Source: a virus
Taxonomy: Duplodnaviria > Heunggongvirae > Uroviricota > Caudoviricetes
Virus record (IMG/VR): IMGVR_UViG_2547132279_000002
Strand: one strand, 5' to 3'
Length of the DNA: 35,703 bases
The translations under genes were made by a program, and so were the position numbers. Of this stretch, positions 1 to 31,301 are shown piece by piece (position 1 is the first letter of the stretch; every line of letters starts with the position of its first letter). Below the pieces are notes generated by a model that worked only from the letters and a program-made list of their open reading frames with translations, had not been told where the DNA came from and did not search any database.

Positions 1-283
1 TACTGACCCGCGACGACCATTTTGCGCAGGTCACCTTTATCTGCCGCCACTCATAAGGCGGCGTCCACAGAAAGGCTTTCCAGCCCCCGTGCTCTTCCAG
101 AAACGACTCCAGTACCGTGGCCTCCTCACGGGGGACAGAAAGCGTCACGCTGTACGTTTTCAGGTTGGCATTCAGCCCGGCAGGCGCTCGCTGGGAACAG
201 CCATCACCAAAGCGCACCTTTCTTACAGAAGGGGCCGAAGCCACATCCATACCGGGTTTCACTTTCCAGCGGAAGGTTTTCAT
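1..283 (-). CDS. M: tail assembly protein M, 5' part only (gene runs off the window start)
   Basis: Reverse complement from 283 reads MKTFRWKVKPGMDVAS..., matching remembered lambda gpM N-terminus; ATG overlaps the H stop (ATGA). Confidence 0.8.
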   Translation of the reverse strand, partial: MKTFRWKVKPGMDVASAPSVRKVRFGDGCSQRAPAGLNANLKTYSVTLSVPREEATVLESFLEEHGGWKAFLWTPPYEWRQIKVTCAKWSSRVS

Positions 284-2841: not shown

Positions 2842-3274
2842 ACCGGACTCCTCCTGCGATCCCTTCTGATACTGTCATCAGCATTACGTCATCCTCCGTC
2901 ATGTCCGCCACATCCGGGGAAGCGGGGATAACTTCATTCCCGTCCGGGCCAAAGCGGACACCTCCGGCAAGCCCTGCCGCTTTCTGCATCAGCACATCAT
3001 CTTCAGGCTCTTCGTCAGCCTCGCGCCGGTTCAGCAGACTGAAATCCAGCGGATGCATATCCGGATCGCTGAAAAACAGGCTGAGCACGGTGTACGTCAG
3101 CCCGGAAAAGTGCATATCCAGCAGAACATCATGAAAATAATGGGTACTGTAAAAGCGGTGCCAGTCGGCATACTCCGTGGATGACATCCCGGCAAGCATG
3201 GCACGCCAGTCGGGTCGCCCCATCTCACGCGCCAGTTTCAGGGCAAAACTCAGCTCACCGTCGAACACTTTCCC
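2834..3274 (-). CDS. T: tail assembly chaperone T segment, expressed only as G-T fusion by -1 frameshift
   Basis: 144-aa ORF in the -1 frame relative to G, overlapping the G 3' end; slippery heptamer present at 3268..3274. Confidence 0.8.
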   Translation of the reverse strand, partial: GKVFDGELSFALKLAREMGRPDWRAMLAGMSSTEYADWHRFYSTHYFHDVLLDMHFSGLTYTVLSLFFSDPDMHPLDFSLLNRREADEEPEDDVLMQKAAGLAGGVRFGPDGNEVIPASPDVADMTEDDVMLMTVSEGIAGGVRYG

Positions 3275-3672
3275 GCAGAAACAGGCTCTGCAGGCCCGGC
3301 GTCCTCTGTCTGTTCAGGGGCATTATTCACAACAAACTCATACATACCAGACAGCCGGTACACCACGTTTTCAGCATGAGAAATTGCCTCCGTGGGCCAG
3401 GTGGTAAGCACTTCCTGCTCAATCTGTTTAACGGCTTCATTCATAGACGGCATCTGCGTCTTCTGCGGATGGTTATGCCACAGGGACATCGCCACCAGAA
3501 ACGCGCCGGTTCTGATGGCGTCTTCCACAGTAAACTTCCGGTTGCTGTCTGACTCCGCCTGTTCTGCCTGCCGTTTCATCAGGGCGAGATGCTCAATACG
3601 CTGCAGGGCTGACAGTTCAGAAAGCGTGACGGTCACACCGTTATGTTCAAATGATTCGGTTTTCAGGAACAT
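3250..3672 (-). CDS. G: tail assembly chaperone G
   Basis: 140-aa ORF MFLKTESFEHNGVTVTLSELSALQRIEHL..., matches remembered lambda gpG. Confidence 0.9.
   Translation of the reverse strand: MFLKTESFEHNGVTVTLSELSALQRIEHLALMKRQAEQAESDSNRKFTVEDAIRTGAFLVAMSLWHNHPQKTQMPSMNEAVKQIEQEVLTTWPTEAISHAENVVYRLSGMYEFVVNNAPEQTEDAGPAEPVSAGKCSTVS
3268..3274 (-). promoter_or_regulatory. programmed -1 ribosomal frameshift slippery site GGGAAAG (G to G-T)
   Basis: Plus strand reads ctttccc, i.e. GGGAAAG on the coding strand, in the G/T overlap, as in lambda. Confidence 0.75.
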
Positions 3673-3687
3673 CGCTGACTCTCCGGA

Positions 3688-4428
3688 TTAACTGGCGGTG
3701 ACGTTGATTTCTGCAACCGCAGCAAGTTCACCATTACCGGATACGACCGGAATGTTGACCTTGCCTGCAGCAACACCTTTCACGGTGATGGTCATACCAC
3801 TGACCGACACGGTGGCTTTTGTTTTATCCGCTGACACCGCACGGAAGCTCTTGTCGGTTGCGCCTTCCGGCTGGAATGCCACGGTCAGCGTGGTGCTCTT
3901 CCCTTTCACTACGGAAGCGCTGGCTGGCGTCACGGTCATACCGGTTGCCGCTGTTACCGTGCTGCGATCTTCTGCCATCGACGGACGTCCCACATTGGTG
4001 ACTTTCACCGTGCGGGTGATCACTTCCTTCGCCGTCACCGCCTTACCGATACTGCTGACCCAGCCGCGGAACACATCGACCGTGCCGTTCGGGAAGCGGA
4101 TTTTATAGGCACGGGTATCACCTTCATTAAACCACGCCAGCAGCGCCTGCTGCCCCTGCTCTCCGGGCATCCACGCCAGCGTGAAGCTGGTATCTCCGGC
4201 AGATTTCTGCCCCTGTCCGGTCGCGGTCCAGTCCGCATCTTCATCATCGAGATAACTGTCGTCATAGGACTCAGCGGTCAGTTCGCCGGGCGTCAGGTCT
4301 TTAACCTTTGCCAGACGCGACCAGTCATTGTCTGAAAGCGGGTTTGCATAAGGGTCGCCGCTCCCGTTATAAACCCACAGTGTGGTCCCGGCCCCTTTCA
4401 CCGGTGCCAGAGGATTTGGTGTTGGCAT
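3688..4428 (-). CDS. V: major tail protein V
   Basis: ORF contains [33 protein letters not shown]..., matching lambda gpV; start placed at the internal Met (cat at 4426..4428) giving 246 aa like lambda V. Confidence 0.9.
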
Positions 4429-4435
4429 ATCGTCC

Positions 4436-4831
4436 TCACATTTCATAGGTAATGACATAAGTCAGATCGGCTGAACTCCACAGGCCCGCATCATCGTCGC
4501 GCCGGTAGTCATAGCCACTGGCCACCATACTGGTGATCAAATCTGACAGTGCCGGGATATCGCTCATCACCGGATAAATCCGGGACTCCATCCACGAATC
4601 CAGCTCTGAATCCGGCACCTGAGCAGGCAGGAAAACTTCAATATGCAGCTCCGCCTGCCAGGTATCGCTGTCCAGCTCTTCGCCCGTGTATTCAGCGCCG
4701 GTGAGATAAACGGCAATTGCCGGAAAATCTTCCTCATCAAAAACAGCGGGGCGACCATCAAAAAGCGTCGCCCCGGTGTCATGCTTCTCCAGTGCATCCA
4801 GTACGGCTGCACGGAGTTCAGTATGTTTCAT
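4436..4831 (-). CDS. U: tail terminator protein U
   Basis: 131-aa [48 protein letters not shown]..., matches lambda gpU. Confidence 0.9.
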
Positions 4832-5406
4832 CGCTTTATTACCATTCTCAGTTGATGCTGCAGCGCATAGCCCAGCTCTTTCGGAAGACGCTCACGCCGT
4901 ATCCGCTCAATATTCTGTTTAAACGCCGTGGTCAGCGGCACCGCCATCGGGATTTTCACCACATCAATGGGGTAACGGTTTTTCCCGGCCACACGCTGCA
5001 TGACATGCCACCGGCCATTTTTCAGTTGCTGAATAAACGCGCCGGGAATACGACGGTTTCCCACCACAAGCACGCTGCCGCCACCTTTCAGGGATGAACG
5101 CTGCCCCTTTTTACGACGCCTGCGGCGGGACAGGACAACCCGCGCATTACCCAGCCTGATTACGGGCAAATCCCCCCGGTTAACCCTGATTCTGGCCTGC
5201 GGATTTTTGACCGTGGCCCTTTTCAGCCTGGCCCTTTCCTTTACCAGTTTCCGGCGTACCTTTGTCTCACGGGCAACCTGTGACGCAGACTGCGATATCG
5301 CGGATGACGCAACGCGGTTAATGGCCATTGCGGCGGCACCAGGCACCGCCGTTTTGCTGATACGGCTGAGGTTTTCAACGGCCTGCTCAAGACCTTTTAT
5401 GGCCAT
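4828..5406 (-). CDS. Z: tail completion protein Z
   Basis: 192-aa ORF MAIKGLEQAVENLSRISKTAVPGAAAMAINRVASS..., matches lambda gpZ. Confidence 0.9.
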   Translation of the reverse strand: MAIKGLEQAVENLSRISKTAVPGAAAMAINRVASSAISQSASQVARETKVRRKLVKERARLKRATVKNPQARIRVNRGDLPVIRLGNARVVLSRRRRRKKGQRSSLKGGGSVLVVGNRRIPGAFIQQLKNGRWHVMQRVAGKNRYPIDVVKIPMAVPLTTAFKQNIERIRRERLPKELGYALQHQLRMVIKR

Positions 5407-5417
5407 ACATCCCCCTT

Positions 5418-5771
5418 TCAGCGGCGACGGTTAACGGCAGGCGGCACGCCACGCCCAAGCCAGAGATGACAGCTTCCGCCATCATCCGGCGAAACCCGGT
5501 CTATCCAGAAGTTTTCCTCACCGATGGTCAGCGTGTCTCCACGCCGCAGCTGCCGCACCTCATCAGTCCGGACAAACAGGGACGGGCTGGAGCCTTCAAC
5601 GCGCACGCCCTGTCCGGCATAGCTGATATTTTCAGGGTCATCAAAAACACCACGTATCACAGCACCGGACTGCTCACCGGATGTCATGGTGGCTGACGTT
5701 CCCATGTACCCGCGTATCGTTTCATCAGCGCGGGCAATGGCAGCATCGAACAGGTTATCGAAATCAGCCAC
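5418..5771 (-). CDS. FII: head-tail connector protein FII
   Basis: 117-aa ORF MADFDNLFDAAIARADETIRGYMGTSAT..., matches lambda gpFII. Confidence 0.9.
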   Translation of the reverse strand: MADFDNLFDAAIARADETIRGYMGTSATMTSGEQSGAVIRGVFDDPENISYAGQGVRVEGSSPSLFVRTDEVRQLRRGDTLTIGEENFWIDRVSPDDGGSCHLWLGRGVPPAVNRRR

Positions 5772-5782
5772 AGCGCCTCCCG

Positions 5783-6181
5783 TTATTGCATTCTGGCCAG
5801 GCCACGTTCTGTCATTTCGGCTGCCACACCGGCAGAGACACGAAACGCCGTTCCCGGCAGCACAAATGCCACAGGTTTATCCCGCGTGGCGTGAAGTGCA
5901 TCAGTATGCAGCGTCACCAGTGCCACGACCGTGACCAGTTCAGCCGTATCCTGAATCACGGTATCCGGCTGCGCTGATATCACCTCATTTTCATGCCCGG
6001 TCAGCACATTTTCCCGGCTGAGAGGGGTGTCCTGACCGGCAGTTTCATCCGTGTCATCAAGCTCTTCTTCCAGCTCTGCCACACGAAGCGCCAGTTCTTC
6101 TTTCGTTCCCGTCAAACTGATATCGCGGTTCAGTTGCTCACCCAGCTCCTGAAGACGGGCAATCAGTTCATCTTTCGTCAT
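5783..6181 (-). CDS. FI: DNA packaging protein FI
   Basis: ORF contains MTKDELIARLQELGEQLNRDISLTGTKEELALRVAELEEELDDTDETAGQ..., like lambda gpFI; start set at the internal ATG preceded by GGAGG. Confidence 0.85.
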   Translation of the reverse strand: MTKDELIARLQELGEQLNRDISLTGTKEELALRVAELEEELDDTDETAGQDTPLSRENVLTGHENEVISAQPDTVIQDTAELVTVVALVTLHTDALHATRDKPVAFVLPGTAFRVSAGVAAEMTERGLARMQ

Positions 6182-6204
6182 GAACTCCTCCACAGAGAGA
6201 AAAT

Positions 6205-6218
6205 GGCCCCGAAGGGCC
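6205..6218 (-). other. perfect GC-rich hairpin (ggccc-cgaa-gggcc) in the E-FI intercistronic gap
   Basis: Seen directly: inverted repeat ggccc / gggcc with a 4-nt loop between the E stop and the FI ribosome binding site. Confidence 0.5.
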
Positions 6219-6222
6219 ATGA

Positions 6223-7248
6223 TTACGCCAGTTGAACGGACACGAACTCATCAGGATCAGCCAGCAGCATCAGCGGTGCTGACTGAATCATGGTGAACTC
6301 ACGCGCCGGATCGCCGGTGGTCACCCAGTTTTTCGGGTAACGGGCAGAGGCGTTAATGCCTTCGCGCTGTGCGTCCGCATCCTGAATGCAGCCATAGGTG
6401 CGCAGACCGCGAGCCTGAGTGTTCCCCAGCACCATCGTGTTGTCCGGCAGGAAGTTCTTTTTGACGCCGTTTTCCACGTACTGTCCGGAATACACGACGA
6501 TGGCCACATCGCCATACATTCCCTTATAGGACACCGCTTTGCCCAGGTCTTTTACCGCTGTCTCCAGCTCGGAATGAGAGCCGCGACGGGTATCCAGCTT
6601 CTCCTTGACGGCTTTGAAGGAACGGAACAGCGCCCAGCCTTTCGGGTCAAACACGATGATATTCACCACACCGCTGGCGTTCAGCGCGTAGGCTTCGATA
6701 TCGTCGGTCGGGTCATACGTGGACTTGTCACGCTTGCTCCACTCCGTGCCGCCGGACTGCGTGATGTTATTCGCCGCACTGCGGCCCATATCCACCTCAA
6801 CCGGATCGAAGGCTTCACCGGTCATGGTGTATTTGCCCTTAAGCACGGCAGAAACTGCCTGCATCTCTTCGACCTGGGCAATCGCCAGATTTTCATCCAG
6901 CATATTCTGCCGAATAATACGGCGACGACGGTAAGCCGGGTCCGCCAGATTCTGCGGATCTTCATCCGGCAGGCGACGCAGGGTCATCTGCGGATTCACC
7001 TCATGCTTGGGTTTGACATATCCCGGCGTAAATTCAGAGGTGGAGCCGCCACGGGAACGGATAACCTCACCGGAAACAATCGGCGAAACGTACAGCGCCA
7101 TGTTTACCAGTCCCGGAATTTGTGAGAGATAGACTTTCTCCGTGGTGAAAGGATAGGTTTCACGGAAAAACAGGCGCAGAAACAGCGGATCGAACTTAAA
7201 GTGATGCTGGGTCGATGCCAGTAATTCTGCAGTTGTATATACAGACAT
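6223..7248 (-). CDS. E: major capsid protein E
   Basis: 341-aa ORF MSVYTTAELLASTQHHFKFDPLFLRLFFRETYPFTTEKVYLSQIPGLVNMALYVSP..., matches lambda gpE. Confidence 0.95.
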   Translation of the reverse strand: MSVYTTAELLASTQHHFKFDPLFLRLFFRETYPFTTEKVYLSQIPGLVNMALYVSPIVSGEVIRSRGGSTSEFTPGYVKPKHEVNPQMTLRRLPDEDPQNLADPAYRRRRIIRQNMLDENLAIAQVEEMQAVSAVLKGKYTMTGEAFDPVEVDMGRSAANNITQSGGTEWSKRDKSTYDPTDDIEAYALNASGVVNIIVFDPKGWALFRSFKAVKEKLDTRRGSHSELETAVKDLGKAVSYKGMYGDVAIVVYSGQYVENGVKKNFLPDNTMVLGNTQARGLRTYGCIQDADAQREGINASARYPKNWVTTGDPAREFTMIQSAPLMLLADPDEFVSVQLA

Positions 7249-7261
7249 AAATTATTTCCAT

Positions 7262-7282
7262 AAAAAAAGCCGCACAGGCGGC
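7262..7282 (-). terminator. hairpin plus U-tract between D and E (terminator or attenuator-like)
   Basis: Minus strand reads GCCGCCTGTGCGGC followed by TTTTTTT, located after the D stop and before the E start. Confidence 0.45.
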
Positions 7283-7303
7283 CTTTGTTGATGAAGGGGA
7301 AGA

Positions 7304-7636
7304 TTAAACGATGCTGATTGCCGTTCCGGCAAACGCGGTCCGTTTTTTAGTCTCGTCGCTGGCAGCCTCCGGCCAGAGCACATCCTCATAACGGAACGAG
7401 CCGGACTTGTAGAACGTCAGTGTGGTGCTGGTCTGGTCAGCAGCAACCGCCAGAATGCCAACGGCTGCACCGTCGGTGGTGCCATCCCACACAACCAGCT
7501 TACGGGTAGTGCCATCCAGCATCAGCGGGGTCATTGCAGGCGTTTTCGCACTCAATCCGCCAGGCGCAATTGCTGTATGAGCCGGATCACTGTTACCCAG
7601 CGGCTGGTAATGGTTAAACTCTTCTTTTGTCGCCAT
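7304..7636 (-). CDS. D: head decoration protein D
   Basis: 110-aa ORF ...[32 protein letters not shown]...[11 protein letters not shown], matches lambda gpD. Confidence 0.95.
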
Positions 7637-7645
7637 AACTGCCTC

Positions 7646-8053
7646 TTATACCGGTAAAGCTTCAGGTGTATTAAGTAATTCTTTATTGGTATCAGATGCC
7701 AGGTTACCTGCAGCCAGCGGTGCCGGTGTACCCTGCATCAGACGATCCAGCGCAGTGTCACTGCGCGCCTGTGCACTCTGTGGTGCTGCAGCCAGAATGC
7801 GGCGGGCCGTTTCCACGGTCATTCCGGGGGTTTCTGCCAGAACGCGCGCCTGTTCTTCGCGTCCGTGAGCCTCCTCACAGTTGAGGATCCCCATAATGCG
7901 GCTGTTTTCTGCCGCAACCGCAGCGGTGATCTGCGCGTTCACGTCCGGCTGCGCCGCGCTGGCGTTTTCGCCCTCCGTCGCTGGCACCACGTCAGTAACG
8001 TCAGCCTGCGAAGCAGTGGCTGAAACAGTTGTTGATTGAGTCTCTTTGGTCAT
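7646..8053 (-). CDS. Nu3: scaffolding protein Nu3 (in-frame internal start within C)
   Basis: Internal ATG giving MTKETQSTTVSATASQ... to the shared stop; position follows the lambda C/Nu3 nested arrangement. Start placement is inferred. Confidence 0.55.
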   Translation of the reverse strand: MTKETQSTTVSATASQADVTDVVPATEGENASAAQPDVNAQITAAVAAENSRIMGILNCEEAHGREEQARVLAETPGMTVETARRILAAAPQSAQARSDTALDRLMQGTPAPLAAGNLASDTNKELLNTPEALPV

Positions 8054-8957
8054 TCGCCCTCCTGAGAGACGGGATTTACGTGCATCCAGTGCATCACGCA
8101 TAACGGTGATCGCATCGGTGCTGTTGACAAGTTCATCAGCCAGTCCGGCATCAATGGCCTCCTGACCGCTGTACACTGCAGCCTCGGTATCCAGCACAGC
8201 CTGCACGGACAGGCCGGTATATGCCGACACCTTCTGCGCAAACATCCGGCGGGTTGCATCCATCCGGGACTGCAGTGTCTCCCGGACGTCATCCGGAAGA
8301 TGGCTGTAGGGGTTGCCATCCACCTTATGGCTGCCGCTGTAAATCAGCGTGATTTCCACGCCCTGTTTCTCCAGCGCAGCACCGTAATTACTGTGAGCCA
8401 TCATGACGCCGATGGAGCCTGTCCGGGCGGTCTGCGTGACCAGACGCCGGGAGGCGGCGCTGGCAAGCAGCTGACCTGCACTGCAGTTCATGTCGTTGGC
8501 CAGCGCCCATACCGGTTTTATGTCTCGCACACGGGCGATGATGTCAGCACAGTCAAATGCTCCCGCCACCATCCCGCCCGGTGTGTCCATATCGAGCAGA
8601 ATGCCGTCCACCATCGGATCGCTGGCAGCCTGTTGCAGACGGGCGATAATGCCGTTGTAACCGGTCATTCCCGAATACGGCTGCAGCGCCCGCGTCCGGC
8701 TGACCAGCGTACCGGACACCGGCAGCACGGCGATGCCGTTCATGACCTGATAACTGCGGGCCTGTCGTGGTCCGTCATCATCACCGGATAACGCCAGCGC
8801 CGCGGGTGCCTCTCCGGCAGTCAGGCTGTCGCCGGACACCGCATCCGTCAGGCGACTGATCCCAAGCTGGCCTGCAAGCGCACAAAAGAAAACCCGCGCA
8901 TAGGCGGGTTCAAGCATCAGCGGCTCATTAAAAGCCATGCTGGCAATATGCGGGAGA

Positions 8958-8977
<20 letters not shown>
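7646..8977 (-). CDS. C: head maturation protease / scaffold C
   Basis: ORF contains VTAELRNLPHIASMAFNEPLMLEPAYARVFFCALAGQLGIS..., matching lambda gpC; start placed at GTG (8975..8977) preceded by GAGGAGGAGAAGA; the longer ORF in the track is an upstream extension. Confidence 0.85.
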
Positions 8978-12582
<3,605 letters not shown>

Positions 12583-17186: not shown

Positions 17187-17648
17187 CTATCTGCACTGCT
17201 CATTAATATACTTCTGGGTTCCTTCCAGTTGTTTTTGCATAGTGATCAGCCTCTCTCTGAGGGTGAAATAATCCCGTTCAGCGGTGTCTGCCAGTCGGGG
17301 GGAGGCTGCATTATCCACGCCGGAGGCGGTGGTGGCTTCACGCACTGACTGACAGACTGCTTTGATGTGCAACCGACGACGACCAGCGGCAACATCATCA
17401 CGCAGAGCATCATTTTCAGCTTTCGCATCAGCTAACTCCTTCGTGTATTTTGCATCGAGCGCAGCAACATCACGCTGACGCATCTGCATGTCAGTAATTG
17501 CCGCGTTCGCCAGCTTCAGTTCTCTGGCATTTTTGTCGCGCTGGGCTTTGTAGGTAATGGCGTTATCACGGTAATGATTAACAGCCCATGACAGGCCGAC
17601 GATGATGCAGATAACCAGAGCGGAGATAATCGCGGTTACTCTGTTCAT
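17187..17648 (-). CDS. Rz: spanin inner membrane subunit Rz
   Basis: ORF contains [51 protein letters not shown]..., matches lambda Rz; start ATG overlaps the endolysin stop. Confidence 0.9.
17246..17428 (-). CDS. Rz1: spanin outer membrane lipoprotein Rz1 (embedded in Rz, +1 frame)
   Basis: 60-aa [50 protein letters not shown]..., matches lambda Rz1; lipobox VVGC. Confidence 0.85.
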
Positions 17649-18142
17649 TGCTGACCCCACAAACAGATTTCACGCTCAATCTCACGACGAGTCATGAGAC
17701 CTTTCCATTGCTTACCGCCAGCATATGTCCAGCGACGTAGCTGATCACATGCGCCTTTGATATCGCCCTGGTTTATTTTGCGAAGAAGCGTCGATGTTCT
17801 GAAATTGCCAGCACCCACGTTGTAAACGAATGAGTAAAGAGCGCCGCGCGTTGTTTCCGGTATATCGACTTCGATGTACGGGTTAATTTGTCTGGCGACA
17901 GTGGCAAGGTCTTTATTCAAGAGTGCTTTGCATTCTGCTTTGGTATACGTTTTACCGAGCATGATGTCTTTTCCTGTATGCCCGTGACATACAGTCCATA
18001 CACCAACAATATCTTTGTATGGTATGTAGCTGACACCTTCCAGACCATCGTTACCACTTGGGCCAGTGATTAACACTGATGCTATAGCAATTGCTCCGCC
18101 ACCAATAGCAGCAGCAACGGCTTTTCGTAATGATGGAGGCAT
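17645..18142 (-). CDS. R: SAR endolysin (phage 21 R21-type lysozyme)
   Basis: 165-aa [47 protein letters not shown]..., with N-terminal Gly/Ala-rich signal-anchor-release segment and T4-lysozyme-like core; matches remembered phage 21 / DLP12 RrrD endolysin. Confidence 0.9.
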
Positions 18143-18499: not shown

Positions 18500-18929
18500 T
18501 TTAAGCTGTGTGACGAAGTAACCACTCTTAACAGCATAACCAATTTTTTACGTACGTAAACCACTAAATGATATTTGCGAGAATGCTACCGAGTATTGAA
18601 AACACCACTACAAATACATAAGCAAATCTCAACAAATAACCAACAAATAATTTCCAGTGTTATTTTTAGCCGATTTAAATTGAACCTTCAAATCATAGAG
18701 CACTTATAAATAACAACCGTTAATATAAATTGGCTAATAGATTTATTTTTATTCAGCCAAGAGCCATGAATAGGATTCGATAGAAAAAAGTTCAGATAAA
18801 AATAGAGATCTACTTCACAAATCAAACGAGAAACCAAAACTTACATCTTGAAATAATCATATTGATTAGATGAATATTTATCGCGCAGTGACATCATTTT
18901 TTAATAATAGTTCAAAAAAAGGGCTCACG

Positions 18930-20027
18930 ATGAAAAAATTAACAGTGGCAATTTCTGCTGTAGCTGCATCAGTACTGATGGCGATGTCTGCTCAGGCAGC
19001 TGAAATTTATAATAAAGACAGTAACAAGCTGGATCTGTACGGGAAAGTTAATGCTAAGCACTACTTCTCCTCTAATGATGCAGATGATGGTGATACTACT
19101 TATGCCCGTCTTGGCTTCAAAGGTGAAACCCAAATCAACGATCAACTGACTGGTTTCGGTCAGTGGGAATATGAATTCAAAGGCAACCGCGCTGAATCTC
19201 AAGGTTCCTCCAAAGATAAAACCCGTCTTGCCTTCGCTGGCCTGAAATTCGGTGACTACGGCTCCATCGATTACGGCCGTAACTACGGTGTAGCATACGA
19301 CATCGGTGCGTGGACTGACGTTCTGCCAGAATTCGGTGGCGATACCTGGACCCAAACAGATGTGTTCATGACTGGTCGCACCACTGGTGTTGCAACCTAT
19401 CGTAACAACGACTTCTTTGGCCTGGTTGATGGTCTGAACTTTGCTGCTCAGTACCAAGGCAAAAACGATCGTAGCGATTTCGATAACTACACCGAAGGTA
19501 ACGGTGATGGCTTCGGTTTCTCTGCTACCTATGAATACGAAGGATTCGGTATCGGTGCAACTTATGCGAAATCTGATCGTACCGACACTCAAGTTAATGC
19601 AGGGAAAGTTCTTCCTGAAGTATTTGCTTCCGGTAAAAATGCAGAAGTTTGGGCCGCAGGTCTGAAATATGACGCTAACAACATTTACCTGGCCACTACC
19701 TATTCTGAAACCCAGAATATGACTGTATTTGCTGATCACTTCGTTGCTAATAAAGCTCAAAACTTCGAAGCTGTTGCACAATATCAGTTCGATTTCGGTC
19801 TGCGTCCGTCCGTTGCTTACCTGCAATCTAAAGGTAAGGATCTTGGAGTATGGGGCGATCAGGACTTAGTCAAATATGTTGATGTAGGTGCCACCTATTA
19901 CTTCAACAAAAATATGTCAACTTTCGTTGATTACAAAATCAACCTGCTTGACAAAAATGACTTCACTAAAGCACTCGGTGTAAGCACTGATGACATCGTT
20001 GCTGTAGGTCTGGTTTACCAGTTCTAA
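18930..20027 (+). CDS. outer membrane porin (OmpC/NmpC/Lc family), prophage moron
   Basis: [47 protein letters not shown]...; signal peptide, general porin motifs and C-terminal aromatic residue (ends YQF); located between Q and S in opposite orientation like nmpC in DLP12. Confidence 0.9.
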
Positions 20028-20216: not shown

Positions 20217-20600
20217 TTAATTAGAGTTATTAACAACGATATCCATCTCTAACCGGATATCTAATGCCATTAACATCCCTTCAATTATGCCCTCAGCCTT
20301 CTGTAACCTTTTCCCGATATAACCATCAGAGCAGCAATGCTTACCTGCCAGTGACATGAATGTCATACCGACTACATAATAATCTACTAATAAATCGTGC
20401 AAATCGCTGTTGTTCTTTTTCAGACGGGCCATGCACCCGCAAATAATCATCGCGTCATCGTCACAACATTGCGGGCGAGATTTTACTTTTGAAGTAATTA
20501 ATCCCTTAAAACCGGCGGCAATGGACGACCAGGTCACATCTTCATGATTATTAGCCGCCCACGCTCCCCAACGCTCAAGAACCATCTGAATATCACGCAT
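20217..20600 (-). CDS. Q: late gene antiterminator Q (DLP12 QuuD-like)
   Basis: ORF contains [35 protein letters not shown]...[20 protein letters not shown]..., matching remembered QuuD; start set at the internal Met. Confidence 0.8.
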
Positions 20601-20685
20601 CAACTTACTCCACAAAAATCAGACCAGAACGCCAATTACAAGCAAAAATCAACAAAACAGTATTAGTTGATTGTTATCTCTGACT

Positions 20686-22090: not shown

Positions 22091-22612
22091 GCTTCACCTC
22101 CGCAGAGGTCAAACGTTGGATGCAAAGAATCGCAGGTGCATTTCTGCATCTGTGAAGGGAGAAGAGAGTTTAGATTGTATGTGCGCATAAACGTCCCCGT
22201 TTAGCGCAGAAGTCACCGGAGGTGTTCAGGCTCCGATGCGATAATTATGACGATCTGATTTTGGAAAATCAAATTTAAGTAACCGCCAACCTATAATTTT
22301 CAATCAAGATTTCATTTATTAGCTCACTCATATAAAAATACATTACAACGTTTTTATCTCTTAATTTATGAAGGCAACCTCGAAAAACAAATCACCCAAA
22401 CACTTTAAAACAATTAAACCCGTTTAAAATTACAATTACATTTAGAAAGCAAACTTTCAAAAGATGTGATGATACAATTGCATAAAACAAATACTTGGGG
22501 TAAAATATAAAAATAACACTCCCAGCTTAACGCTAGGTGGCGGTAGCGTGTATTTTTCAAATACGCCTATCACCCCATTATGTTTTTTCATATTTAAGAG
22601 ATTGGTTATATA

Positions 22613-24399
22613 ATGGAACTAATATACACTTATATCCACAATTATAAAGGTTTAAATAAGCTGTCCCTCCCCACCTCAAGTAAATTTACCTTTAGCCATA
22701 AAGGTAACGTCCTTACAATTGCTAAGAAAGATTTAAGTCGTGACTATTATAGCAATATTCCCTGTACATTAATTTTAGGGAAAAATGGTGTTGGAAAGTC
22801 ATCAATTTTAGATTTCATTAGTAGCTTTATTTACGATTTTGAAGGTAGCGGTTATAGCATCTGGAATGAAAATGATAAACTTATAATTATCACAAGCAAT
22901 TGCAAACCTCCTGTAATATTATCCAAAATGCAAACGGAACTAATTGATAATAATGAACATTTTTTTAGAAGAAACAAAATCAATCTAATAAAGATAAATA
23001 ACACAATCGACCTCAAAAGTATGTTAGTTGGACAAAAAAGAAAAAAAACGATTCGATTTCTAAAGATTTATCACTGTCATATTTTTTGCAAGGCAGTAAA
23101 ACACGCAATAAGAAATTACTCAAGCAATTAATTTCATTTTCAGACCACAGTTCATGGGCTAAAGACAATTTATCAAGACTTAATACTAAATTTCAATTTG
23201 AAATAGAAAACTCACCAGTATATAAAATAAATTCTATTATAAAAAACAATGATATTGGTGACAAAGGACTTTTTGGAGCTATTGAATACTTTTTTGATAC
23301 GTTGAATGATAGAATTAAAAACAATAAACTCCCTAGATATATTGAACGTGATTTAGATTCTTTAGGTATTTCACTTGTGGATATACTCAATCATGGGATA
23401 GATTACGATGAAGATTTTATTATTAGCATTATTTTTAACAAAGAAAGATCATTAAATTTCCTCGCAACCTTTTCATATCACAAAATAATTTACTTGATGC
23501 TTTTGCCTGCAATAACATGGCATTTACTCAAGACATCAAAAATCCCTAAAGACATATGTGAGACTGTTTATTTATTTTGCTTGTGTCGCGCGTATCTTGA
23601 AGAAAAAGATCCAGCAAAAACTATATTAGAGACTTTAGATGAATTTAACGTTAATGTTAAATTTCAGTCAAAAATAGAAATGTTATCTGAACATATCTCC
23701 GACATTATAGGTAATATAGCTGATATATTAGAAAACACAGCAAGAGACCCAGTTGATAGTTTATCTTTCACAGTTGAAGAACCAAAGCAGATTATGGAGT
23801 TAATAAGATTAGTTGATAGGTTACCAAATGGCGTATCATCGCGATTTAAGTATGGTTGGGATTCACTTAGTTCAGGAGAGTTTGCAAAATTAAACCTTTT
23901 CAATCAACTTTATGATTCTATAGAACATAGCAACAGCAAAAATATTATAATATTATTAGATGAGTGTGATTTATATCTACACCCTGAATGGCAACGAGTT
24001 ATTTTTTCAGAAATTATAGATTTAACATTAAGATATAAACAAAGTAAAAATATTCAATTAGTATTTACAACTCACTCCCCTATACTCGCAAGTGATTTTT
24101 TGCCATCAGATATAATATATCTTGAAAGAGATCATAATCAAGGAACCTATACTAAGAAAGTAGAGTTTGGTTTCGGAGCAACCATATCAGAATTATATAT
24201 AAATGGTTTTTTTATTGATGCTACAATAGGACAGCACGCACATAATTATCTAAACTCAATAATAAAAAACTCAGATGACGGTAATTTAAATAAACATCAA
24301 AAAACCATACTATCACAAATTAAAAATAAACTTCTCATAAATCTTATTGATCTGAAGTTAAACAAAAACAATGATAAAACAGATTCTTTTGAGAAATGA
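22613..24399 (+). CDS. ABC-type (AAA15/AAA21-like) ATPase, reading frame broken at a poly-A run (~23034..23049); PtuA-like
   Basis: Two overlapping ORFs (22613..23131 and 23086..24399) in different frames. Walker A LILGKNGVGKSS in the first; signature-like LSSGEFAKLN, Walker B IIILLDECDLYLHPEW and H-loop FTTHSP in the second. The second frame is open from 23002; the switch falls in aaaaaagaaaaaaaa. Confidence 0.65.
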
Positions 24400-24408
24400 G
24401 TAAAAAAA

Positions 24409-25601
24409 ATGATAAAAATAAACAAAGACTTCAATGTTGATGTAAAAATATCCTTTTCTAAAATAGTAAGCAAAGTTAATAAACGCGTGAAGCAGAGGAA
24501 GTTACTGAACATTACTCCCGATGAAGTAGAGTTTCTAAATACAATCAACAAAAAAACTATCAGAAAATTAGTTTTTTCAAAACCCAAACGATTAAAAAAT
24601 ATAATCATCAAAATATACAACAAACACCCAATTGTGTGTGAGTACTATTCTCCTGATTATTTTTTAAGGCACTTAAATTTACAACCATTAACAAACCTAC
24701 AATTACCTTTAAAAACAAAAGAAACAAAAAAATAGTTTATAATGAACTAGCACATGCCATCAAAATAATCACATCTTTCTCTCAAACTACACAAAGCCTA
24801 ATACTTGAGGATATATTAAATACACATTTCTCACCACAAAAATTATCTAGTTTAAGAGATAAGATTCTTAATCTTATAAGTATCAAGAATGGTGGTCCTT
24901 TAAAGGAAAATACCATTAAGTTATTTCCATCATGGGTTAAAAATATTTCTGAAATATTTAAATACTCACTTATTGATAGAGAAACAGCGTATCAATTGAA
25001 CAGTTTTTTAGACATTAGCATATGCCCATATTGCAACAGTGAAGAAATTGAACAAGTAGAAGACCATACAGGTACTAGCTACAGGCCAGCATTTGATCAT
25101 TTCATACCTAAGTACAAATATCCGTTGATCTCCTTTAGTTTATTTAACTTAATTCCTAGCTGCACTAAATGCAATAGTACTTATAAAAAATCACTCGATC
25201 CGATCATGAGCCCATTTTCAAATCCTTTTCTTGAAGGTGTAAATGACACTCAGCTTTTTGATTTTAATTATGACATTGATTATATATATAGAGATGGCCA
25301 AATTGATGATGATCACATTCAAATTATACTAAAAAAACAAAAAAACAACATCGATGAAAACATGGCTAAACTTAGCATAGAGAATAGATATAATTCACGC
25401 ATTAGAAAGAAAGCAGTTAGATTAATTGCAAAGAGAGCATTTGATCTAAAAGCTTATGAAGAAAATTTCATTATAGAACCAACTCTTTTCGCTACTTTCG
25501 GTTACGAGACTAACATTGAGCCGCTAAAGCATATGCATAAAAAACTTACTCAAGATGCAATATTAGTATTCTGCAACAAACAAGTACCGTTAATTGAATA
25601 A
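24409..25601 (+). CDS. HNH endonuclease-domain protein, frame broken at a poly-A run (~24711..24731); PtuB-like
   Basis: ORF 24996..25601 carries CPYCNSEEIE...FDHFIPKYKYP...NLIPSCTKCNSTYK (HNH with two CxxC pairs) but starts at TTG; its frame is open back to 24657 with no ATG and abuts ORF 24409..24735, which ends in gaaacaaaaaaatag. Confidence 0.55.
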
Positions 25602-27681: not shown

Positions 27682-28221
27682 TCATATTGCCCCCAACATG
27701 GTGGTAACCATCGCCATCAATGGACCAGCCAGATCCGGGTCCACACGAAACATCGACACAATACCTTCACTAATTTCCTTCAGTTTCTGGTGGCGTGGTG
27801 CGTTGAGAATGACAGCCTGTTTTGCCTCACTGAGTTCCTTTTCCATTTCAGCCAGCCGAGTCATGAAGCTATCCTGCTCAACCAGGTAACCGCGATATTC
27901 CAGCGGTAGTACCGCCAGAATTGCCGGGGTCAGTTCACGCACGTTATTTCGGTATTTTTCAGAATCGAATTTGTTATCGAGGAAGCGGAACAGCTTCTGG
28001 CGTGCACGGCTGACATCATCAGGGAAATCGATGGTGCCGTCGCCCTGCTCCCGATACTCATTCACAATGAGTGCGGCAACGACATCCTGATTATCTACAG
28101 CCGACCAGGCGCGGACGGCATCACGGATTTTTTCGTGGTCTGGCACCTGTTTTGTTTGAGAACGATTTATCACCGCAGTCGGGCTAAATCCGCTAGTCTG
28201 TTGGTATGTAAGTGGTTGCAT
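27682..28221 (-). CDS. CII-position regulator, YdaT-like
   Basis: 179-aa ORF in the cII position (between cro-like gene and O); segment TPAILAVLPLEYRGYL resembles the Rac YdaT motif IPAILAILPRELRHRL as I remember it. Confidence 0.55.
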   Translation of the reverse strand: MQPLTYQQTSGFSPTAVINRSQTKQVPDHEKIRDAVRAWSAVDNQDVVAALIVNEYREQGDGTIDFPDDVSRARQKLFRFLDNKFDSEKYRNNVRELTPAILAVLPLEYRGYLVEQDSFMTRLAEMEKELSEAKQAVILNAPRHQKLKEISEGIVSMFRVDPDLAGPLMAMVTTMLGAI

Positions 28222-28290
28222 AATTGACTCCTTTAGTTTGAATTGACTGTTAAGTTGATTGCTTATTGTTAAAGAGCGTGAAATGGAAAT

Positions 28291-28521
28291 TTAAGCTGCG
28301 TTCTTTTCGGTGTGTGGAAACAACTTCGGAAGATCCGGGCGAATCTGGTATGCCTTCACTACTCCACCAGTAGCCGTAACAATGCTGCCGACATGTTCAG
28401 GGGATACCTTTGCTTTGTTGTGAAGCCACTTATAGACGGCCTGCTGTGAAACTTCGCAAGCAGCGCCCAGTTTCTTTTGTGAACCAACGATATTGATCGC
28501 TGTTTTGATAGCTGGGTTCAT
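28291..28521 (-). CDS. cro: Cro-like / YdaS-like HTH regulator
   Basis: 76-aa ORF divergent from cI; helix-turn-helix-like segment LGAACEVSQQAVYKWLHNK. Confidence 0.7.
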   Translation of the reverse strand: MNPAIKTAINIVGSQKKLGAACEVSQQAVYKWLHNKAKVSPEHVGSIVTATGGVVKAYQIRPDLPKLFPHTEKNAA

Positions 28522-28625
28522 AACAACCTCCGTGGTTAATTTGAATCAAGATTAAAACTATGGTTGTTTTTAGTCAACAACCATTTTCGTTTGATGGAAT
28601 AAAACCTTGGTTGTACATTTGGACT
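28522..28625. promoter_or_regulatory. immunity operator/promoter region (OR, divergent PR / PRM) between cro-like gene and cI
   Basis: Four copies of half-site ACAACC/GGTTGT in 104 bp, including the 25-bp palindrome ATGGTTGT-n9-ACAACCAT at 28560..28584; AT-rich; sits between divergent repressor genes. Confidence 0.55.
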
Positions 28626-29315
28626 ATGAAAACAACACTCTCAGAAAGACTTAAAGAAGCCAGATTAGCGCGAGGCCTTACACAAAAGGCGCTTGGGGAT
28701 TTGGTCGGGGTTAGCCAGGCTGCTATTCAGAAAATCGAAACAGGGAAAGCTAATCAAACAACTAAAATCGTGGAGATCGCGAACGCTTTGGGTGTGCGCG
28801 CAGAATGGTTATCTTCTGGCGTTGGAAATATGTCAGACAGTACAGTGCAACCAATACAATCAACTGTCAGCCATTCCAAATACTTCAAGATTGACGTTCT
28901 TGATATAGAAGTCAGTGCTGGGCCGGGAGTCATCAACCGTGAGTTTGTAGAAGTTCTACGCTCGGTTGAGTACTCGTTTGACGATGCTCGTCACATGTTC
29001 GATGGTAGGAAGGCGGAAAATATCCGCATCATTAACGTGCGTGGTGACAGCATGTCAGGAACGATCGAACCAGGTGATCTGCTGTTCGTTGATATCACGG
29101 TTAAATCTTTCGACGGTGATGGTATCTATGCGTTTCTGTACGACGACACAGCCCATGTAAAGCGCCTGCAAATGATGAAGGATAAGCTGCTGGTTATCTC
29201 TGATAACAAGAGCTACTCACCGTGGGACCCGATCGAGAAAGACGAGATGAACCGGGTGTTCATCTTCGGTAAGGTTATTGGGAGCATGCCCCAGACGTAC
29301 AGGAAACATGGATAA
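28626..29315 (+). CDS. cI: CI-type prophage repressor (HTH + LexA-like S24 peptidase domain)
   Basis: MKTTLSERLKEARLARGLTQKALGDLVGVSQAAIQKIETGK... HTH; C-terminal GDSMSGTIEPGDLLFVD...AHVKRL with Ser/Lys dyad; start set at internal ATG 28626. Confidence 0.85.
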   Translation: MKTTLSERLKEARLARGLTQKALGDLVGVSQAAIQKIETGKANQTTKIVEIANALGVRAEWLSSGVGNMSDSTVQPIQSTVSHSKYFKIDVLDIEVSAGPGVINREFVEVLRSVEYSFDDARHMFDGRKAENIRIINVRGDSMSGTIEPGDLLFVDITVKSFDGDGIYAFLYDDTAHVKRLQMMKDKLLVISDNKSYSPWDPIEKDEMNRVFIFGKVIGSMPQTYRKHG

Positions 29316-29381
29316 TCAGTACTGTGCTGATGAGTCGTTTAGGGGATAGTAAATTTAATTAGAATTAGACGAGAGCGATTT

Positions 29382-30245
29382 ATGGATTGTGACGCTTTAC
29401 AGGATATAAAAATCTCTCTTAGGTATGACGGAAAAGATGCTTTAAATCATGAAATAGATTTGAACTGCCTAGGAGAATCCCTAAAGGGTTTTTCTAAAGT
29501 TCTCTCAACAGCAGCTTCTTTCTCTGTTACACAAAAATATAGTAAATACATTAATTATCAGGAAGTTAAGGTTTACGCACGCGAAGCAAAAGCTAACTGC
29601 TTTACTCTTGAAGCAGTTCTTAACTTCGCCACTCAGAACCAGTTGTTCTCGGGGATCGCCGCAACTATACTTGGCGCAATACTACAATATATTTTTGCGA
29701 GAAATTCTAACAAGAAAGATGAAATGAAAGCTTTGCAGCAGTCACTTGAAAAGGCCATAGAGGCACTAGGAAACAAGGATGCTGGAACCATTGATAAGTT
29801 GATCTCTTTGATTGACCGAATGGCTGTAGAGCTTCGCCCCTCTGTAAGGCAGGCAGTATCACCTATTGGTAATACTTGCGATCAGATAAGTGTTGCAACA
29901 AATGTTGACGGCTGCCTTCTAAAAGTTAACGAGAGAGATAAAGCTGAAATTGATAGGCTTGATGATGATGAAGTTCTCGGTCTTCGTGAGTATCGTGCTT
30001 TTCTTACAGAATTTGATGCACAAAATATGACAGCTAAAATAATTTTAGATGGTGATGACTCAAAAAAGAGAATCACTGCTGAAATTAGCGATCCAGCTGC
30101 AGGAAAGAAGAATAACCCGTATATTAGAGCTCTTAGTGCATATATATCAACCAAAGGTGATCCATCTGCAGTATTCACTATAACCGCAAAGGCTACTGTT
30201 AAAAAAGGCCAGATAAACAGGTTATTTATTGTAGATGCGAAATGA
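29382..30245 (+). CDS. hypothetical 287-aa protein in the rex position immediately downstream of cI
   Basis: Long ORF co-oriented with cI, visibly more AT-rich than cI, with one hydrophobic segment [19 protein letters not shown]; followed by a strong terminator; no family recognised. Confidence 0.6.
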
Positions 30246-30249
30246 TTTC

Positions 30250-30276
30250 CCCGGCCGTCGTGCCGGGTTTTCTTTT
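30250..30276 (+). terminator. rho-independent terminator ending the cI operon
   Basis: Stem cccggc / gccggg with 6-nt loop followed by TTTTCTTTTG, 5 nt after the stop codon. Confidence 0.7.
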
Positions 30277-30369
30277 GCCTCCCCTCATCACACAAACCGT
30301 TCAAAAAACCACCACGACCTCGCTTCAGTTATCGCTGTGCGATGCAAGTCACAAAATAAATCCATCCTA

Positions 30370-30450
30370 AATACAACCAGTTATATCTAAAACAACCAAT
30401 AAAACAACTTTTGTTGTTGACGATAAAACAACTATAGTTTTAAATAAGTT
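30370..30450 (+). promoter_or_regulatory. candidate OL/pL region (operator half-sites and leftward early promoter)
   Basis: Same ACAAC/GTTGT half-sites as OR (acaaccag, aacaaccaat, AACAACttttGTTGTT palindrome); possible -35 TTGTTG (30411) and -10 TATAGT (30433) with 16-nt spacer, oriented toward gam-bet-exo. Confidence 0.4.
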
Positions 30451-30638
30451 CATCGCAACAACACAACGATACGGCAACTACCTGATTCACCGTTGCGATG
30501 ACCGCTTAGATCCGCAGCTTGAATTTCAGCAGGCTTCGGGGAGTGCGAGGGATGAAACGGACGCGTGAACGTCGGTGTGACCAGCTGAAATCAACTCAAC
30601 ATTTCATACCTTAGTCGCTTCAACGAGGCGGCTTAGTT

Positions 30639-30929
30639 ATGACAACCGGCGGCCATCCACCGCCTGAATACGCGCAGAAGTCTTTATATGTTCAGCAGCC
30701 CAGCTTACGGGCAGGAGTTTTTATGGTTCATCAACATTACGGAACGCAGACCGTTAATCGCGGTGCGGTCATGCCAGGAATGCTGGTCAAACGCAAAGAT
30801 GGTACCTGGACTGCATCAGCTAATTTACGCGGACGACTTTATCTGCATCGCGGCATTGAGCGCACTTATACCCGTGACTTGCTCGTGGAAGTTTTTCTCG
30901 ACGGACGCGGCAACGGTCTGAATCACTAA
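30639..30929 (+). CDS. hypothetical protein in the kil/cIII position upstream of gam
   Basis: 96-aa ORF, no recognised family; co-oriented with gam-bet-exo. Confidence 0.35.
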   Translation: MTTGGHPPPEYAQKSLYVQQPSLRAGVFMVHQHYGTQTVNRGAVMPGMLVKRKDGTWTASANLRGRLYLHRGIERTYTRDLLVEVFLDGRGNGLNH

Positions 30930-31004
30930 TCCCCTTTCCTGTTTTCCGAATCAGCCTGGCATTCCGCGGGCGATTTTTTCACAGCCATTTTCAGGAGTTC
31001 AGCC

Positions 31005-31301
31005 ATGAACGCTTATTACATTCAGGATCGTCTTGAGGCTCAGAGCTGGGCGCGTCACTACCAGCAGATCGCCCGTGAAGAGAAAGAGGCAGAACTGGCA
31101 GACGACATGGAAAAAGGCCTGCCCCAGCACCTGTTTGAATCGCTATGCATCGATCATTTGCAACGCCACGGGGCCAGCAAAAAAGCCATTACCCGTGCGT
31201 TTGATGACGATGTTGAGTTTCAGGAGCGCATGGCAGAACACATCCAGTACATGGTTGAAACCATTGCTCACCACCAGGTTGATATTGATTCAGAGGTATA
31301 A
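31005..31301 (+). CDS. gam: host RecBCD inhibitor Gam
   Basis: 98-aa [63 protein letters not shown]..., matches lambda Gam (short form). Confidence 0.9.

Follow-up and report, generated by a model that had tools for sequence, protein, structure and literature searches.

The window analysed here is a stretch of 35,703 nucleotides (nt) from a virus of the Caudoviricetes (IMG/VR record IMGVR_UViG_2547132279_000002). Directly behind its prophage repressor gene, cI, lies an open reading frame (ORF) at 29382..30245 on the plus strand, which begins with ATG and encodes a protein of 287 amino acids (aa) with the Pfam domains DUF7946 and DUF7947. A preliminary description of this DNA had pointed to the ORF downstream of cI, with an end at 30276 that takes in the terminator behind the gene, and had assigned it to the "rex position". 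Both observations hold: the gene follows cI on the same strand and precedes OL/PL, as rexA and rexB do in lambda, and the half-site clusters of OR and of OL/PL flank cI and the gene. Its AT-richness was likewise confirmed. The gene has a GC content of 38.4% (29.5% at third codon positions), compared with 47.0% (51.3%) for cI and 49.6% for the window.

The repressor (28626..29315, plus strand) is of the cI type, with Pfam matches to Peptidase_S24 (E 1.5e-18) and HTH_3 (E 6.5e-13). Divergent from it are a cro-like gene (28291..28521, minus strand) and, beyond that, a CII/YdaT-like gene (27682..28221, minus strand). Between the cro-like gene and cI, positions 28520..28640 hold the OR operators and the divergently oriented promoters PR and PRM. 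Five ACAAC/GTTGT half-sites are found here at 28523-28632, with a perfect palindrome, ATGGTTGTT-N7-AACAACCAT, at 28560-28584. The cI ORF as listed begins at 28560, with an ATG that sits within this palindrome. Because the upstream ATG falls inside the operator, translation probably starts at the in-frame ATG at 28626 (MKTTLSERLKEARL...), which lines up with the N-termini of homologous repressors. On the other side of the gene, the OL operators and the putative PL promoter (30367..30475, plus strand) contain seven half-sites at 30373-30463, including AACAAC-TTTT-GTTGTT, and also a TTGACG hexamer. The OR arms are 95% complementary to the OL-region arms, and the half-sites are clustered only in these two places, where their density per 150-bp bin is the highest in the window. 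Past OL/PL, the plus strand carries a Kil-like ORF (PHROG 294), gam, bet, exo and a Dam methylase gene; the promoter would be directed toward the first four of these.

Between cI and the gene is a spacer of 66 nt (29316..29381, plus strand), in which a Shine-Dalgarno-like element, GAGAG, precedes the ATG by 6 nt. By eye, a weak TTTAGG-N16-TAGAAT element can also be made out here, a candidate internal promoter. A terminator scan found none in this spacer, where RNA folding gave hairpins without a U-run, and a gap of the same 66-nt length is present in 31 homologous loci. An intrinsic terminator (30250..30277, plus strand), located 5 bases past the stop codon, ends the cI-gene unit. It consists of CCCGGC-CGTCGT-GCCGGG followed by TTTTCTTTTG, with six G-C pairs, a 6-nt loop and a folding energy of -12.1 kcal/mol (z = -2.05). 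The terminator announced in the preliminary description is thus present; the term "strong" used there is slightly generous for what is a typical intrinsic terminator. In the lysogen, the gene is probably co-transcribed with cI from the repressor transcript. It has the features of a co-transcribed "moron": it lies on the repressor's strand after a short gap, no terminator intervenes, it has a terminator of its own, and its homologues are found with varied repressors.

In the preliminary description, no family had been recognised for the protein; profile searches corrected this. Pfam DUF7946 matches aa 11-191 (29412..29954, plus strand) over the entire profile (1-183 of 183; E 3.8e-55, 187.2 bits for a cut-off of 27), and DUF7947 matches aa 201-287 (2-79 of 79; E 1.4e-18, 67.1 bits, cut-off 27). 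Otherwise, at E values up to 1, Pfam gave only a chance match of 17 residues. PHROG 5147 ("unknown function") is matched end to end, 1-287 of 287, at E 1.5e-178. In a profile search that went exhaustively through 1.84 billion representative proteins, 495 clusters (50% identity) were recovered at E up to 1e-3, 98 of them at E up to 1e-30. Full-length members are mostly 265-320 aa long, with a few reaching 364 aa, and bear no extra recognisable domain. The two-domain architecture is fixed: DUF7946 is present in all 109 diverse members and DUF7947 in 108. A search for relatives with other C-terminal domains, using a profile of the N-terminal domain only, returned just the same two-domain proteins and fragments.

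The named sources of the family are Enterobacterales, Neisseria, Vitreoscilla, Kordiimonas and Caulobacteraceae; a scan of GTDB gave only eight loci and added Mannheimia and a Burkholderiaceae genome. The family spans the Gamma-, Beta-, Alpha- and Epsilonproteobacteria. No published function for its members or for the phi80 protein discussed below was found in the searchable literature, and membership of the gene in a widespread two-domain family without assigned function is firmly supported. Ratios of nonsynonymous to synonymous substitution rates (dN/dS) of 0.02-0.05, obtained with unsaturated dS for homologues of 87-91% identity, show that the gene is real and strongly constrained by purifying selection. 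Thirty-seven complete Escherichia coli chromosomes (e.g., O114:H49 90-9280 and ETEC-2264) carry the 2.5-kb immunity region in identical or nearly identical form, and RefSeq there labels the gene "hypothetical protein" or "DUF7946 domain-containing protein". Among 5426 complete E. coli genomes, 76 have the gene itself at an identity of at least 99%, always as a single chromosomal copy, which in one of them is interrupted by the insertion sequence (IS) IS1.

Only two phage records match, namely a Helicobacter pametensis prophage protein (50% identical) and protein 40A of phage phi80 (PHI80_46), which is 62% identical over 99% of the length (288 vs. 287 aa). The older record X13065 splits the phi80 gene into 40A and 40B. 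The slot is the same in phi80, with the order cI, gene, OL/pL operators, nutL and N. On the contrary, the repressor and operators are of another immunity type, and the gap behind cI measures 133 nt instead of 66. The sequence and position firmly support that the window gene is an orthologue of phi80 40A. In record JX871397 (positions 5001-5867 of the extracted phi80 locus), the phi80 protein is labelled "acetate kinase superfamily domain". Neither Pfam, NCBIfam nor the PDB supports this label, which looks like an annotation artefact. The Tai system of phi80 was also considered and rejected, as Tai is orf63, a different gene near Q; orf63, and not 40A, is the known protective gene of this phage (PMC11364771).

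For the genomic context of the relatives, 96 loci were compared: 79 from IMG/VR, eight from GTDB, six assembly-derived, the phi80 and Helicobacter phage records and the window. Their ORFs were searched with a hidden Markov model built from five S24 repressors. The sample is redundant, with 11 protein clusters at 80% identity and 49 loci in the cluster of the window gene. An S24 repressor lies directly upstream on the same strand in 78 of the 98 family-matching ORFs, most commonly with a gap of 66 nt, and clustering of the linked repressors at 60% identity gives at least 19 groups. The repressor-gene order recurs in prophages of Vitreoscilla, Morganella, Neisseria and Mannheimia, where the surrounding replication and recombination modules are unrelated. 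In a metagenomic homologue of ~25% identity, the start codon even overlaps the repressor stop by 4 nt. Gene order over these loci firmly supports a linkage to prophage repressors across many immunity types. The gene is interchangeable cargo, with the repressor transcript as its preferred docking site.

Several other loci have the repressor 440-870 nt upstream, with small ORFs between. In an Erwinia prophage (L009, 3188-3933), these are ORFs of 177 and 71 aa, and in an IMG/VR prophage (L060, 3318-3758), a single ORF of 146 aa; the 71- and 146-aa products start with hydrophobic stretches. By this arrangement, the repressor-linked slot seems able to hold several cargo genes in a row. In the Vitreoscilla sp. 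C1 prophage (L003/L004, 7661-9274), a gene for a 537-aa protein with a SIR2_2 domain follows the DUF7946/DUF7947 gene in the same slot, and is a probable second defence cargo of this hotspot. Some copies adjoin genes that resemble the DinI type by eye only, and one adjoins an IS element, a DUF3800 gene and a PIN/Phd pair.

The structure of the protein was predicted with AlphaFold2. The predicted local distance difference test (pLDDT) score was 76 with an alignment of 22 sequences, and 91.7, with a predicted template modelling (pTM) score of 0.76, with the 109 diverse sequences. In the model, a small unit of alpha/beta type is followed by a three-helix unit and a C-terminal oligonucleotide/oligosaccharide-binding (OB) fold. 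The alpha/beta unit (aa 9-82) has the order beta1-alpha1-beta2-beta3 and bears the family motif RYDGxDAxxHxIDLxxLGxSLxG, while the three-helix unit is modelled as helices 87-108, 112-128 and 134-158. The C-terminal domain (aa 168-287; 29883..30242, plus strand), within which DUF7947 lies, is predicted as a closed five-stranded beta-barrel of OB topology and superposes on solved OB domains. These include SilF/CusF, RPA/SSB/PriB, IF1, the N-domains of class IIb aminoacyl-tRNA synthetases and the B subunits of AB5 toxins. Sequence identity to them is 5-13% without a common ligand-specific motif; for lack of such a motif, the ligand cannot be inferred. The match is one of a predicted and not of a solved structure.

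Foldseek gave nothing with E below 0.001 against the PDB. Sequence searches of solved structures with the single protein gave no matches, and the 109-sequence profile gave only chance-level coiled-coil matches (best E 0.018, to prefoldin). An enzyme domain was indicated neither by sequence (Pfam, NCBIfam, PDB) nor by the fold searches. The predicted structure supports a protein with a C-terminal OB-fold and no recognisable enzyme fold. The profile and structure-based comparisons proposed in the preliminary description led to a family, DUF7946/DUF7947 with its OB-fold model, that is itself uncharacterised, and matched no characterised system.

The single hydrophobic segment noted earlier was recovered as a Gly/Ala-rich helix at aa 88-106 (29643..29699, plus strand), a candidate membrane segment of 19 residues without charge and with a Kyte-Doolittle (KD) 19-residue mean of 1.85. 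The biological hydrophobicity scale of Hessa et al. was summed over 19-residue windows and the lowest sum was taken for each protein. This gave 1.63 for aa 88-106, compared with 0.01 for a transmembrane (TM) segment of lambda RexB, 0.78 for the anchor of the signal-arrest-release (SAR)-type endolysin of the window prophage, 3.23 for the porin signal peptide and 4.2 to 18.6 for eleven soluble proteins of the window and lambda. The segment lies within the range of the membrane-segment controls and outside that of the soluble controls. A matching Gly/Ala/Ser-rich segment is present near residue 85 in 105 distant members, with a median KD value of 1.56 and with 90% at 1.2 or above. Lys/Arg residues and an EEMK motif usually follow it: the mean number of Lys/Arg is 1.1 in the 15 residues before the segment and 2.9 in the 15 after. 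If the segment spans the membrane, this bias would mean that both the helical hairpin and the OB domain are cytoplasmic. Membrane association of the protein seems likely, though unproven, and a latent or peripheral insertion would suit the data better than a classical single-pass anchor. Weak matches to PHROG holins (E 0.1-0.13, over aa 79-148) were treated as compositional. The endolysin used as a control (17645-18142, minus strand; Phage_lysozyme, E 2.8e-45) carries near its N-terminus, at aa 8-26, a weakly hydrophobic segment rich in Gly and Ala, which we take to be its SAR anchor and which resembles the hydrophobic helix of the DUF7946 protein in composition.

The interval between cI and N is a mosaic hotspot that holds rexAB and bstA, and few promoters are more active in lysogens than that of the repressor; the characterised occupants named there, rexAB and bstA, all protect the lysogen from other phages (PMC8585504). 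The gene shares with lambda rexA/rexB the slot and the transcriptional logic, with a terminator before OL/PL, and one can conceive of a soluble sensing part and a membrane part in either system. Rex, however, has two components, a cytoplasmic sensor and a membrane protein, in contrast to the single ORF between cI and the terminator here. RexB is reported to be a multi-pass membrane protein (PMC8585504), whereas the DUF7946 protein has one marginal hydrophobic helix. No homology was detected: hhalign gave a probability of 0.2% to RexA and 0.1% to RexB, and there was no Pfam RexA/RexB match. BstA of the Salmonella prophage BTP1 is an abortive-infection protein of ~300 aa with aba self-immunity. 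It is likewise encoded by a single gene right behind the prophage repressor, and this gene ends in a Rho-independent terminator of its own (PMC8585504). Unlike BstA, the window protein matches only DUF7946, DUF7947 and PDC-S42 in Pfam and PADLOC, and its predicted fold combines an OB-fold with a helical module.

In PADLOC-DB v2.0.0, no significant match to any characterised system was obtained. The sole match is to the candidate PDC-S42, a single-gene phage defence candidate, for which aa 9-127 align with positions 4-113 of the 302-position profile (E 1.5e-4). This is not a fluke, as PDC-S42 is matched by 53 of the 109 family members (best E 3.2e-8); other PADLOC systems are matched by just one or two of them, at E above 1e-4. 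The N-terminal ~110 residues align and the C-terminal parts differ, so that, by these matches, the DUF7946 protein is a relative of PDC-S42 through its N-terminal module and not a member. PDC-S42 is itself a computational candidate, on which no paper was found in the literature. PHROGs 3243 and 13337 share the N-terminal module too, and a weak link leads to NCBIfam LAPAL_fam. On this profile evidence, the module belongs to a wider, equally uncharacterised set, of which one branch has been computationally flagged as a defence candidate. Membership in LAPAL_fam ("putative phage structural protein") was rejected: the match covers the N-terminal part only and, at 26 bits, falls short of the cut-off (60), and the gene's place is in the immunity region and not in a virion module.

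The preliminary description had proposed a superinfection-exclusion or abortive-infection protein. The genomic context given there was right; the defence role is plausible and unproven. Some anti-phage role seems to us rather probable. The more specific reading that we prefer, as yet tentatively and at less than even confidence, is that a single protein, coupled to the repressor, acts in exclusion or abortive infection, with the OB-fold as its sensor and a helix active on the membrane. The gene would be an accessory gene (a moron), expressed in the lysogen by read-through of the cI transcript, which the gene's own terminator would stop before OL/PL. The cytoplasmic C-terminal OB-fold would sense a product of the infecting phage, either single-stranded nucleic acid or protein, and the N-terminal DUF7946 module would act on the inner membrane through the Gly/Ala-rich helix. 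At rest, helix 88-106 would be packed in the three-helix unit; upon activation, it would insert or oligomerise, membrane function would collapse and phage growth would stop. The defence role, the assignment of sensor and effector and any action on the membrane are put forward as conjecture. A bolder version, which we consider rather unlikely, makes DUF7946/DUF7947 a single-polypeptide functional analogue of RexAB, coupled to prophage repressors across the Proteobacteria, in which an OB-fold sensing a phage replication or recombination intermediate would free the weakly hydrophobic helix from a soluble three-helix bundle into the inner membrane and so cause abortive infection.

Several observations weigh against the reading that we prefer. 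The searchable literature contains no experimental phenotype for any family member, and neither RexA and RexB nor the validated defence families of PADLOC and Pfam showed sequence or profile similarity to the protein. Phage HK106 plates normally on a phi80 delta-tai lysogen that retains 40A (PMC11364771); therefore, 40A does not visibly restrict HK106. Kordiimonas and a related metagenomic contig, both of the Alphaproteobacteria, carry isolated chromosomal copies amid metabolic genes. Disrupted copies are found in five viral loci, by a 1-nt insertion (L052, L053 and L059), by a split into two ORFs (L094) and by an insert of ~1.4 kb (L085), and the copy of E. coli VG1046-3E9 (hit H26) is interrupted by IS1; the gene is therefore dispensable and sometimes lost. 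As for the helix, it is only marginal as a TM segment, with a borderline family median of the Hessa sum (3.7), and AlphaFold2 packs aa 88-106 into a helical bundle. A topology with the C-terminus inside would moreover need an N-terminus of 87 residues, with ~10 Lys/Arg, to be exported without a signal peptide, which is unlikely.

Alternatively, the gene might be a non-defence lysogeny factor that modulates induction, repressor turnover or host physiology. The tight and sometimes overlapping coupling to S24 repressors in very distant taxa could mean a functional partnership, and both the stand-alone copies amid housekeeping genes in Alphaproteobacteria and the lack of protection against HK106 in the phi80 delta-tai lysogen fit such a role. 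The partners, however, are at least 19 unrelated repressor types, the gene is missing from most prophages of the same immunity (the full 2.5-kb query is found in 37 genomes and parts of it in 2226) and it is often disrupted. Varied repressors, patchy presence and disruption are features of interchangeable cargo and not of a core regulatory partner, and the relationship to the PADLOC candidate PDC-S42 also speaks against this explanation, to which we give perhaps one chance in a few. A chance ORF or a decaying pseudogene can practically be dismissed. Some copies elsewhere are indeed frameshifted or interrupted, but the strong Pfam and PHROG matches, the 495 clusters, the low dN/dS and the confident AlphaFold2 fold contradict it, and the conservation data already refute it.

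Two further explanations keep an anti-phage function and change its mechanism; we regard both as improbable. In envelope superinfection exclusion, helix 88-106 would anchor the protein in the inner membrane, where it would block genome entry as is reported for P22 SieA and T4 Imm, and the cell would survive. Alternatively, the protein could be a soluble stoichiometric inhibitor, with the helix as a buried core or oligomer interface and with the OB-fold binding a nucleic-acid intermediate or a protein of the phage, so that replication, recombination or assembly would be blocked without any part for the membrane. Nineteen consecutive uncharged residues, kept across the family, argue against a soluble protein. 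About half of each helix would be solvent-exposed in a three-helix unit, and AlphaFold2 routinely packs true TM helices too.

Some other features of the window were recorded. In the region between PL and gam (30476-31004), no N-type antiterminator gene was recognised. The first ORF behind PL (30639..30929) has a match to PHROG 294, the Kil family, over aa 20-96; a terminator-like hairpin (30954-30971) comes after it. The leader of ~160 nt between PL and this ORF (30476-30638) is without Rfam match, and an Rfam scan of 28000-31200 gave nothing credible. Between a NinB-like gene and a P-like replication gene sits an AT-rich island (22600-25601; GC 26-32%) on the plus strand, whereas the early genes around it run on the minus strand. 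It encodes a Septu-like pair of an ATPase and an HNH protein, with matches to the PADLOC candidates PDC-M62A and PDC-M62B and to PtuA/PtuB. Each of the two genes looks split (22613..23131 with 23086..24399, and 24409..24735 with 24996..25601), which may reflect either decay of the system or frameshifts. Finally, beside the antiterminator gene Q (20217-20615, minus strand) lies a full-length Gram-negative porin gene (18870-20027, plus strand; Porin_1, E 1.2e-156), which presumably resembles the phage-borne Lc/NmpC-type porins of lambdoid prophages.

The gene behind cI is best described as representing a new protein family in a repressor-linked defence slot, neither an orphan nor a member of a characterised system. 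DUF7946/DUF7947 adds a further occupant to the cI-to-PL slot, one without homology to known defence proteins, and the phi80 40A orthologue offers a ready laboratory model and a direct experimental handle. A negative result in defence assays would mean that tight repressor coupling alone does not predict a defence gene. A positive result would establish a new single-gene defence family and would explain a phi80 gene in records such as X13065 to which no function has been assigned. If the protein is indeed a single-polypeptide analogue of RexAB, it would represent a new combination of effector and sensor, without relative among the known defence systems.
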